NCBI RefSeq assembly: GCF_965641715.1
Contig: NZ_OZ282453.1
Length of the DNA: 64,000 nucleotides
Direction: 5' to 3' (one strand)
DNA from: Escherichia coli
GTDB taxonomy: Bacteria > Pseudomonadota > Gammaproteobacteria > Enterobacterales > Enterobacteriaceae
Under the pieces are notes generated by a model. That model searched no databases and was not told the origin of the DNA. It saw nothing but the letters and a program-made list of their open reading frames with translations. A program made the position numbers and the translations under genes. This document shows, in pieces, positions 60,290-60,779 of this stretch (the stretch's first letter is position 1; the number at the start of each line of letters is the position of its first letter).

Positions 60290-60779
60290 CGTGACGTTTC
60301 CTTTTAGTGGGAGAGCCTCGCCCCGGGATGAGCAGCCCACAGAGAAAGTCACACCGACCATCCCGTAAGCTCCCCCCCCCTGAAAGGCTCTGTGGTTTTT
60401 GATGTGCACCGGACGTGGCGCGGATATGAAAAAAGCTCGCAGTAGCGGGCCTGGCTACAGGCAAAAAAATACCCGTCCGGAGACGGGCTAACACATTCAA
60501 CATGTAAGAGTGGAACAGCGTTTATTTTAAGTATGGTCGCCGCCAGAATGAGTCGTCAGATTGCAACGCAATTCTGGCAAATCGCAGGCACCAAAACAGG
60601 CAACGACTCATTCTGGCAACGACTTTTTTCCAATAACGCAACTTCATGAACAAAAAAAAGAACAGCACTGTATCCGCTATTGCAGAATGGAGAACAATAA
60701 AAAACCTGAACTATTATTCAACTCGGAAAACCGCCAGTGCTGTAAAAGTCCGTCAGAAATAAAACAATGAAGTTGTGGA

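Follow-up and report, generated by a model that had tools for sequence, protein, structure and literature searches.

A slippage-prone G run in the structured leader of a prophage TerB-family gene of Escherichia coli

The window analysed here is a stretch of 64,000 nucleotides (nt) of Escherichia coli DNA (contig NZ_OZ282453.1 of RefSeq assembly GCF_965641715.1), in which the minus strand is the coding strand of the late region of a lambdoid prophage. It contains nine consecutive C at 60372-60380 on the plus strand, as read directly from the sequence, and hence a run of nine G (G9) on the minus strand, which lies 83-91 nt 5' of the ATG codon (60289-60287) of a TerB-family gene similar to tciA of P1. 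This run has no role in a real open reading frame (ORF) or in a promoter. It is probably a derived, slippage-prone and near-neutral homopolymer inside a leader that would control translation, rather than a coding or promoter switch. Drift in length that the leader tolerates best accounts for the polymorphism, and fine-tuning is a less likely alternative.

Origin and length polymorphism of the G run

An earlier note on this DNA placed a C tract of about 9 nt between 60360 and 60390, about 85 nt upstream of the likely start codon and within a longer upstream reading frame. This description is accurate: the tract consists of exactly nine C at the distance given above and lies inside a mechanical ORF of 181 amino acids (aa) that starts at GTG 60409. 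All other C or G runs in the window are 6 nt or shorter. A base-composition model predicts 8.7 G/C runs of at least 7 nt in the window, whereas only one is observed, indicating that G/C homopolymers are depleted in the window and that the G9 run is an outlier. Its length is that of a slippage-prone homopolymer (about 7-8 nt or more).

The leader was aligned from 14 relatives, and an exact-pattern scan of IMG/VR enlarged this set to 135 loci. The ancestral state at the position of the run is A-GGGGTG-A in 58 of the 135 loci and GGGGGTG-A in 48. Uninterrupted runs, 6 to 11 nt long (G6 to G11), are found only at loci where the T is replaced by G (22 loci). The lengths in this set are G6, G7, G9 and G10 in the lineage of the window, G6, G7 and G8 in a second A-type lineage (L016, L020 and L029), and G6, G7 (eight loci) and G11 in the B-type leaders with an uninterrupted run; phage Evi represents a fourth backbone, with G11. 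The commonest lengths, G6 for the A-type and G7 for the B-type leaders, equal the direct products of the T-to-G substitution, and the other lengths look like slippage derivatives. As judged from these aligned loci, the run is shown to be recently derived from GGGGUG by a U-to-G change, which converts an interrupted G4 into an uninterrupted G6. Two prophages of one genome (L054 and L055, IMG 2728369393) have B-type leaders with GGGGTG instead of GGGGGTG; this loss of one G is the sole observed case in which the length differs although the interrupting T is retained.

Among complete E. coli genomes, the lineage of the window is represented by seven pig isolates, with G10 in EC416, G8 in PEC41 and PEC422, G7 in ETEC1730, 1717 and 1718, and G6 in ETEC1703, so that the eight genomes of this lineage carry five different lengths (G6, G7, G8, G9 and G10). 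One C of the run is the sole difference between ETEC1717 and ETEC1703 (L002/L003) across 3.36 kb, and one tract base is the sole difference between EC416 and the window in a 361-nt region. Database sequences therefore show length polymorphism between closely related strains, as is expected for a contingency locus. The suggestion of the earlier note that the tract is prone to slippage is borne out by these differences among near-identical prophages. The same note held that an invariant length, together with a position outside any promoter or ORF, would speak against its proposal; the length proves to be variable across related prophages, but the tract does lie outside the real ORF and any promoter.

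Structure and covariation of the leader RNA

The approximately 165 nt 5' of the ATG are about 88% identical in prophages with differing upstream neighbours (tRNAs, helix-turn-helix genes or a toxin gene). Conservation of the leader in spite of these different neighbours pointed to a functional module. The structured leader extends from a hairpin, P1, to the start codon (60287-60424, minus strand); it scores 148 bits with a covariance model (CM R1) built from TerB-type leaders, and its structure is supported by covariation and by RNAalifold. All helices described below are on the minus strand. Hairpin P1 (GCGCC-ACGTCC-GGTGC) is located at 60406-60421, and all five of its stem pairs show compensatory changes, the stem variants across subtypes being GCGCC/GGCGC, TGCGCTT/AAGCGTA, TCCTGTC/GACAGGA and TGCACT/AGTGCA. 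The CGUCC sequence of its loop pairs with GGGCG at 60319-60323 (loop-e contact). These two elements covary as CGCCC/GGGCG, CGCTC/GAGCG, CGCACA/TGTGCG and TCTCAC/GTGAGA, with longer forms across subtypes (CGCCCGG/CCGGGCG, CGCTCGG/CTGAGCG, CGCACA/TGTGCG and TCTCACG/TGTGAGA).

The Shine-Dalgarno (SD) sequence of the TerB gene, AAAGG at 60300-60304, is paired with CCUUU at 60383-60387 (anti-SD). This pairing (CCTTT/AAAGG) is formed in 100% of the alignment cells, with an extension pair that alternates between A:U and G:C. Helix b is formed by GGGGGAGCUU at 60367-60376, which consists of the five 3'-most Gs of the tract and AGCUU, and by AGGCUCUCCC at 60309-60318, which ends 4 nt before the SD sequence. 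Five of its eight pairs show compensatory changes, with GGGTGAGCTT/AGGCTCACCC, GGGTGAGCCA/TGGCTCACCC and GATGAGCCCT/AGGGTTCATC as variants across subtypes. The other four Gs of the tract are in an internal loop beside the anti-SD helix. Helix c pairs GGGAUG at 60359-60364 with CAUCCC at 60325-60330 (GGGATG/CATCCC exchanging with GGAGTG/CGCTCC or CACTCC), and an apical hairpin d (GUCG-GUG-UGAC) is located at 60348-60358. Helix a is formed by CCACAGAG at 60388-60395 and CTCTGTGG at 60337-60344 and covaries as well, its variants being CCACAGAG/CTCTGTGG, CCGTAGAG/CTCTACGG, CCTGCAGAGC/GTTCTGCAGG, CCAAAGA/TCTTTGG, CACAGAA/TTCTGTG and CAGAGA/TCTCTG.

In a model-guided alignment of 30 sequences, 94.8% of the cells form standard pairs, as compared with 35-51% when the partners are slid by 1-3 columns, and 22 of 41 pairs show changes on both sides. 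Among 500 shuffles, none reaches the observed value in four of five measures, and one does so in the fifth (further pair types). This alignment was fitted to part of the structure and its sequences are related, so that these counts are supportive values rather than event-based statistics; helix a and the loop-e contact covary although they are absent from the model that made the alignment. RNAalifold independently recovers P1, the anti-SD:SD pairing and helix b from the same alignment, with compensatory changes in 12 of 20 pairs. These comparisons show the covariation-supported helices of the leader, and comparative and in-silico results agree that the SD sequence is paired (CCUUU/AAAGG) in one conformer.

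Helix a probably cannot coexist with the full closed stack, because the 3' end of its 5' strand adjoins the anti-SD sequence and the complementary strand is placed at the apex of the stack formed by the anti-SD helix, b and c. This mutual exclusion, which follows from the geometry of the model, makes two states of the leader RNA most likely. In constrained folding, the closed state (anti-SD:SD with b, c and d) has an energy of about -53 kcal/mol and the open state (P1, a and d) one of about -36 kcal/mol. A nested fold (fold Y, with GAGCC/GGCUC, GCUUACGGG/UCUGUGGGC and G-run/CCC) was obtained by RNAalifold and RNAfold from a set of low diversity, but was rejected because it shows no covariation above controls on the diverse alignment. 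A hepatitis delta virus (HDV)-like ribozyme was also considered, since the 5' strands of b and c and a hairpin all lie within helix a, an arrangement that resembles a nested double pseudoknot. P1 of HDV-like ribozymes begins with G.U; helix a begins with C:G, there is no Rfam hit, and this candidate was likewise discarded.

Energetics of the run and competing explanations

The leader, of approximately 135 nt, would act as the 5' untranslated region (UTR) of tciA/TerB, an accessory gene of the prophage late operon. Helix a (CCACAGAG/CUCUGUGG) would be transcribed first and leave the ribosome site open, so that an early open state (P1, a and d) frees the SD sequence. In the closed fold, which is predicted to be thermodynamically favoured, CCUUU would pair with AAAGG, stacked on helix b (GGGUGAGCUU/AGGCUCACCC) and helix c, and thereby sequester the SD sequence. 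The U-to-G change in GGGGUG would create the uninterrupted G6, which then drifts in length by replication slippage, and the A-to-U change of the partner in the lineage of the window would keep the pair as G:U. The small internal loop that separates helix b from the anti-SD helix would accommodate any extra Gs, which would be tolerated for this reason and may at most modulate the closure of the ribosome site. Sequestration of the SD sequence as the function of the leader, its two-state behaviour and the near-neutrality of the tract length are what we infer from the structural model.

The sequences and the predicted energies of the closed fold are consistent with this scheme. In the lineage of the window, the ancestral U:A pair of helix b is changed to G:U (T to G in the tract and A to T in the partner), whereas in the other three lineages with a G run the partner is still A, giving a G.A mismatch. 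In constrained folding, the closed fold on the L004/L016 backbone (partner A) has an energy of -56.3 kcal/mol with GGGGUG and -51.5 kcal/mol with G6. On the window backbone (partner U), it has an energy of -48.8 kcal/mol with GGGGUG, -52.3 kcal/mol with G6 and -51.7 to -53.7 kcal/mol with G7 to G11. When the partner base alone was swapped on the window backbone in a separate run, the energies were -53.0 kcal/mol for GGGGUG/A, -48.2 kcal/mol for G6/A and -52.3 kcal/mol for G6/U. These energies suggest that the U-to-G change alone costs about 4-5 kcal/mol, that the partner change restores the stability, and that the length barely matters; the predicted energy of the closed fold differs by about 1 kcal/mol when Gs are added.

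The earlier note proposed that slippage at the tract toggles an N-terminally extended TerB product or changes promoter spacing. The reading frame gives this proposal some footing, because both G9 and G6 place GTG 60409 in frame with the TerB gene, the G9 run being read as Gly-Gly-Gly. However, an in-frame TGA closes the upstream frame in 101 related loci, 20 codons before the ATG in 57 of them, with no start codon before the TGA, and 27 codons before it in 44 further loci. The leader contains 1-nt indels between relatives, and no start codon equipped with an SD sequence is found upstream. The start at ATG 60289, by comparison, has a good SD sequence and is conserved: PGAP uses the equivalent ATG in all relatives, PGAP and GenBank annotate the MFG start in every record, and 17 TerB homologs from eight genera all begin with M-F/L-G. 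The N-terminal extension is therefore rejected, since the upstream frame is not conserved. A promoter role is rejected as well, because a scan for the sigma-70 consensus on the coding strand of 59700-61600 finds no promoter-like site, and no -35/-10 pair flanks the tract on this strand. The tract, which lies downstream of two terminator-like hairpins in a transcribed, structured leader reached by read-through, is thus located outside of any ORF or promoter, neither in a translated frame nor in a -35/-10 spacer as expected for a contingency locus, and the region around it forms a covarying RNA structure instead. The proposal is largely refuted and must be regarded as very improbable.

Tract length may alternatively serve as a heritable and rapidly reversible rheostat that sets the output of TerB/TciA by shifting the leader between SD-closed and SD-open folds. 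Unconstrained folding gives a second, near-isoenergetic nested fold that competes with the closed fold to an extent set by tract length: the energies predicted for the two folds differ by no more than about 4 kcal/mol on each backbone, the balance on the window backbone changes from -1.9 kcal/mol (G6, closed fold favoured) to +3.6 kcal/mol (G8-G11), and the predicted probability of an unpaired SD sequence rises from 0.20 to 0.49. The tract is also the fastest-changing site of the locus. Nevertheless, the predicted direction reverses on the type A and type B backbones, and since constrained folding yields these opposite trends no directional claim is made. The helices of the alternative open fold covary no more than controls do, and the closed fold, which is supported by covariation, varies by about 1 kcal/mol or less with length. 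A rheostat is considered unlikely, and the second fold is not relied upon, because of this reversal and because it has no covariation support. We also regard as rather improbable that the true length is constant and that the recorded differences are sequencing or assembly errors. G/C homopolymers of 8-11 nt are error-prone on nanopore and older platforms, and the single tract base that separates EC416 from the window in the 361-nt region points the same way. The assemblies from one study, three with G7 and a fourth with G6, argue for real differences, although some assemblies may contain homopolymer errors. The lengths span five units, and the sequences that record them were produced in several laboratories and include older isolate assemblies of IMG/VR; the variation is confined to loci without the interrupting T, as real slippage predicts, but errors would show the same dependence. 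The run itself, with its T-to-G and A-to-T substitutions, does not arise from changes of the error type.

A broader reading, which is possible but tentative, is that the leader represents a new class of conformational-switch RNA that gates translation of diverse accessory genes in response to a signal, and that the G-run alleles re-set this switch. Two mutually exclusive sets of helices, both with covariation support, and the hairpin-loop contact would be its elements; the gated genes (TerB/TciA, Ant, KilA-N and the TAXI binding protein) would lie in late operons of lambdoid phages, of P22-like phages and even of Erwinia jumbo phages, and ant in the lysis cassette of 933W-type Shiga toxin phages would be one of them. 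The switch would respond to a metabolite, to a protein of the phage or the host, or to the kinetics of Q-antiterminated transcription, and the alleles (GGGGUG and G6 to G11), whether or not the partner compensates, would constitute a natural allelic series. A tolerated, slippage-prone homopolymer in a leader that controls translation is still the favoured explanation of the run, but several points weigh against it. Changes in tract length move the balance with the second fold by as much as 5.5 kcal/mol on the window backbone, and if this fold is real, tract length would matter. Neutrality of the length is a thermodynamic prediction from a nested-structure model that cannot score the pseudoknot. 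The T-to-G change recurs in four backbones, which would also suit a rheostat and could reflect selection rather than mutational bias, and some of the length differences could be homopolymer errors of long-read assemblies.

Distribution, genomic setting and significance of the leader

A second, divergent copy of the leader (ant type) is detected in the window at 58241-58377 on the minus strand (CM R1 58 bits, E 5e-13). It follows the GH108 lysin gene, has its own hairpin and T-run and, within the stretch 58190-58405 (minus strand), precedes only a 17-codon remnant of ant at 58190-58243, the ORF MNMITACLISDCMSGNC, of which the first codons match the start of ant of Shiga toxin (Stx) phages. The rest of ant appears to have been replaced by AT-rich cargo. 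Homologs of the second copy are present in 305 phage records; in Stx phages of the 933W type and in VT1-Sakai they lie in the gap between R and ant, and in P22-like Salmonella phages and one Klebsiella phage they follow Rz/Rz1 and precede a KilA-N gene. More distant copies of the leader occur in Citrobacter, Leclercia, Pseudocitrobacter and an unclassified enterobacterium, in Klebsiella and Escherichia phages, in Erwinia jumbo phages and in Klebsiella variicola plasmids. The downstream genes belong to four unrelated families, TerB (PF05099), P22_AR_N Ant (PF10547), KilA-N (PF04383) and the NMT1_3/TAXI binding protein (PF16868), and the leader always ends at the SD sequence and ATG, in a fixed position and orientation. 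In a K. variicola plasmid (L167, NZ_CP103421.1, locus 901-1026), the leader is fused directly to a TAXI/NMT1_3 gene instead of a TerB gene, and in Erwinia Machinavirus jumbo phages (L165/L166) the order is tRNA-Cys, leader, TerB gene, small gene and TAXI gene. The TerB leader of Plesiomonas shigelloides (L153, MUNJ01000013.1, about 1120-1200) consists of the terminator and hairpin P1, with the start codon immediately after; the structured part of approximately 100 nt is missing, as if the element were a separable module.

The leader is not an obligatory partner of TerB genes, since TerB/TciA homologs of Rahnella, Pantoea, Yersinia, Hafnia, Enterobacter and P1-like elements have unrelated leaders. 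A resemblance of GGGGTGAGC/GAGCTTAC to an enterobacterial repetitive intergenic consensus (ERIC) sequence raised the idea of a dispersed intergenic repeat of the ERIC or repetitive extragenic palindromic (REP) kind. This idea was rejected, because the element is single-copy and gene-linked: it occurs in 171 of 5,426 E. coli genomes, at a median of one place per genome and virtually always at a TerB gene. Neither copy, nor the leader of a 933W-type ant gene, matches any of the 4227 models of Rfam 15 (E up to 1-10), a set that includes IsrK, C4, AsxR/AgvB, HDV-like ribozymes and riboswitches; only tRNA and naRNA4 reach the Rfam gathering score in the window. A search of the open literature for tciA, the ant leader and a structured RNA at these sites found mentions at the level of annotation only and no description of the leader. 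This modular RNA family, which would form a pseudoknot or adopt two states, is thus apparently undescribed.

On the minus strand of the window, a DNA methyltransferase gene (61554-62612) and two tRNAs (61359-61513) precede the leader. A strong hairpin with a T7 run, resembling an intrinsic terminator, is located at 60461-60488, upstream of the leader module. A weaker hairpin with a T-run at 60429-60453 (CAGGCCCGCTACTGCGAGCTTTTTT), the stem of which is weakened by a C.A mismatch, marks the 5' boundary of the conserved module. In some relatives the leader module directly follows the gene for the Q antiterminator, and in these phages the upstream hairpin is at the position expected for the late terminator tR'. 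The leader is followed by the TerB-family gene (59864-60289, 141 aa), a DUF3927 (TciB-like) gene (59715-59867) that always follows the TerB gene, two holin genes and a GH108 endolysin gene (58413-58967), and then by an MscS-like cargo gene and the Nu1, terminase A and portal genes. The MscS-like gene (56888-57904, minus strand) is part of an AT-rich segment between the lysis genes and Nu1/terminase, and is probably prophage cargo inserted where Stx phages carry ant. In one relative (L008, E. coli OU342919, locus 2114-2638), a gene for an enterotoxin A family protein is located upstream of the TerB leader and occupies the slot of stx in Stx phages. The region of approximately 870 nt between the tRNA-Arg gene and the TerB leader (60490-61358) contains no annotated gene in close relatives; a tRNA-like fragment (60781-60839, minus strand, 23 bits) lies within it, and an inverted repeat (cagaatgagtcgt/acgactcattctg) at about 60546-60620. 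ARAGORN calls a 92-nt tRNA-Arg(tct) at 59767-59858 (minus strand) inside the DUF3927 ORF; this call has no Rfam support and is probably a false positive. Four Rfam matches to naRNA4 (REP-derived nucleoid-associated RNA), three of them in tandem, are found at 12907-12985 and 26012-26292 (minus strand).

Phase-variable poly-G/C runs are known from genes and promoter spacers in Neisseria, Haemophilus and Campylobacter. The run in the window resembles these contingency loci in being a G/C run of at least 8 nt, in differing in length between near-identical strains and in having slippage as its source. It differs from them in its location in a stem and an internal loop of a 5'-UTR RNA, in the small predicted effect of its length, and in its occurrence in E. 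coli prophage DNA, where it is recently derived from an interrupted run. The leader itself is comparable to operators and riboswitch platforms that sequester the SD sequence, such as the rpsO/S15 operator of E. coli, preQ1-II and SAM-II. It shares with them a structured 5' UTR, a paired SD sequence, mutually exclusive helices, long-range or loop contacts and a modular position before unrelated genes. Unlike them, it matches no family of Rfam 15 and, as far as seen, is present only in phage late operons and their derivatives.

The IsrK-orf45-anrP leader of the Salmonella prophage Gifsy-1 likewise belongs to a late region, where it comes directly after an intrinsic terminator and precedes a gene of the antirepressor type (PMC4825925). 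Its read-through transcript is translationally silent because long-range pairing closes the ribosome-binding site (RBS), and compensatory mutations have demonstrated two alternative structures, an inactive A and an active B; the closing strand is the part of the small RNA upstream of the terminator, and the short small RNA activates in trans (PMC4825925). The leader in the window shares this setting immediately behind an intrinsic terminator of a late region, and its predicted long-range pairing would likewise close the RBS. It differs from IsrK in that all of its paired elements are downstream of the terminator and in that no similarity is found by sequence or covariance model. Homology to IsrK is rejected on account of the differing architecture and of the lack of a match in the Rfam scans. 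In P22 and in P1/P7, ant genes are under antisense control by sar and c4, respectively (PMC12197685). The leader may likewise restrain translation of an antirepressor post-transcriptionally at the RBS. In contrast to these trans-acting or antisense RNAs of immunity regions, it would be a cis-acting fold of the late (lysis) region, and it also precedes TerB, KilA-N and TAXI genes.

The homopolymer alone is a minor curiosity, a hypermutable run in a UTR with probably little effect. The larger result is a widespread, covarying RNA, absent from Rfam 15, at the RBSs of accessory genes of phage late operons. One such gene is ant, situated between R and Rz in Stx phages of the 933W type, a group that ranks with the best-studied phages. 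The natural alleles of the G run, with and without the compensating partner change, are ready-made mutants of this RNA, which may provide a testable handle on the separate translational control of cargo or 'moron'-like genes in a massively transcribed late operon.
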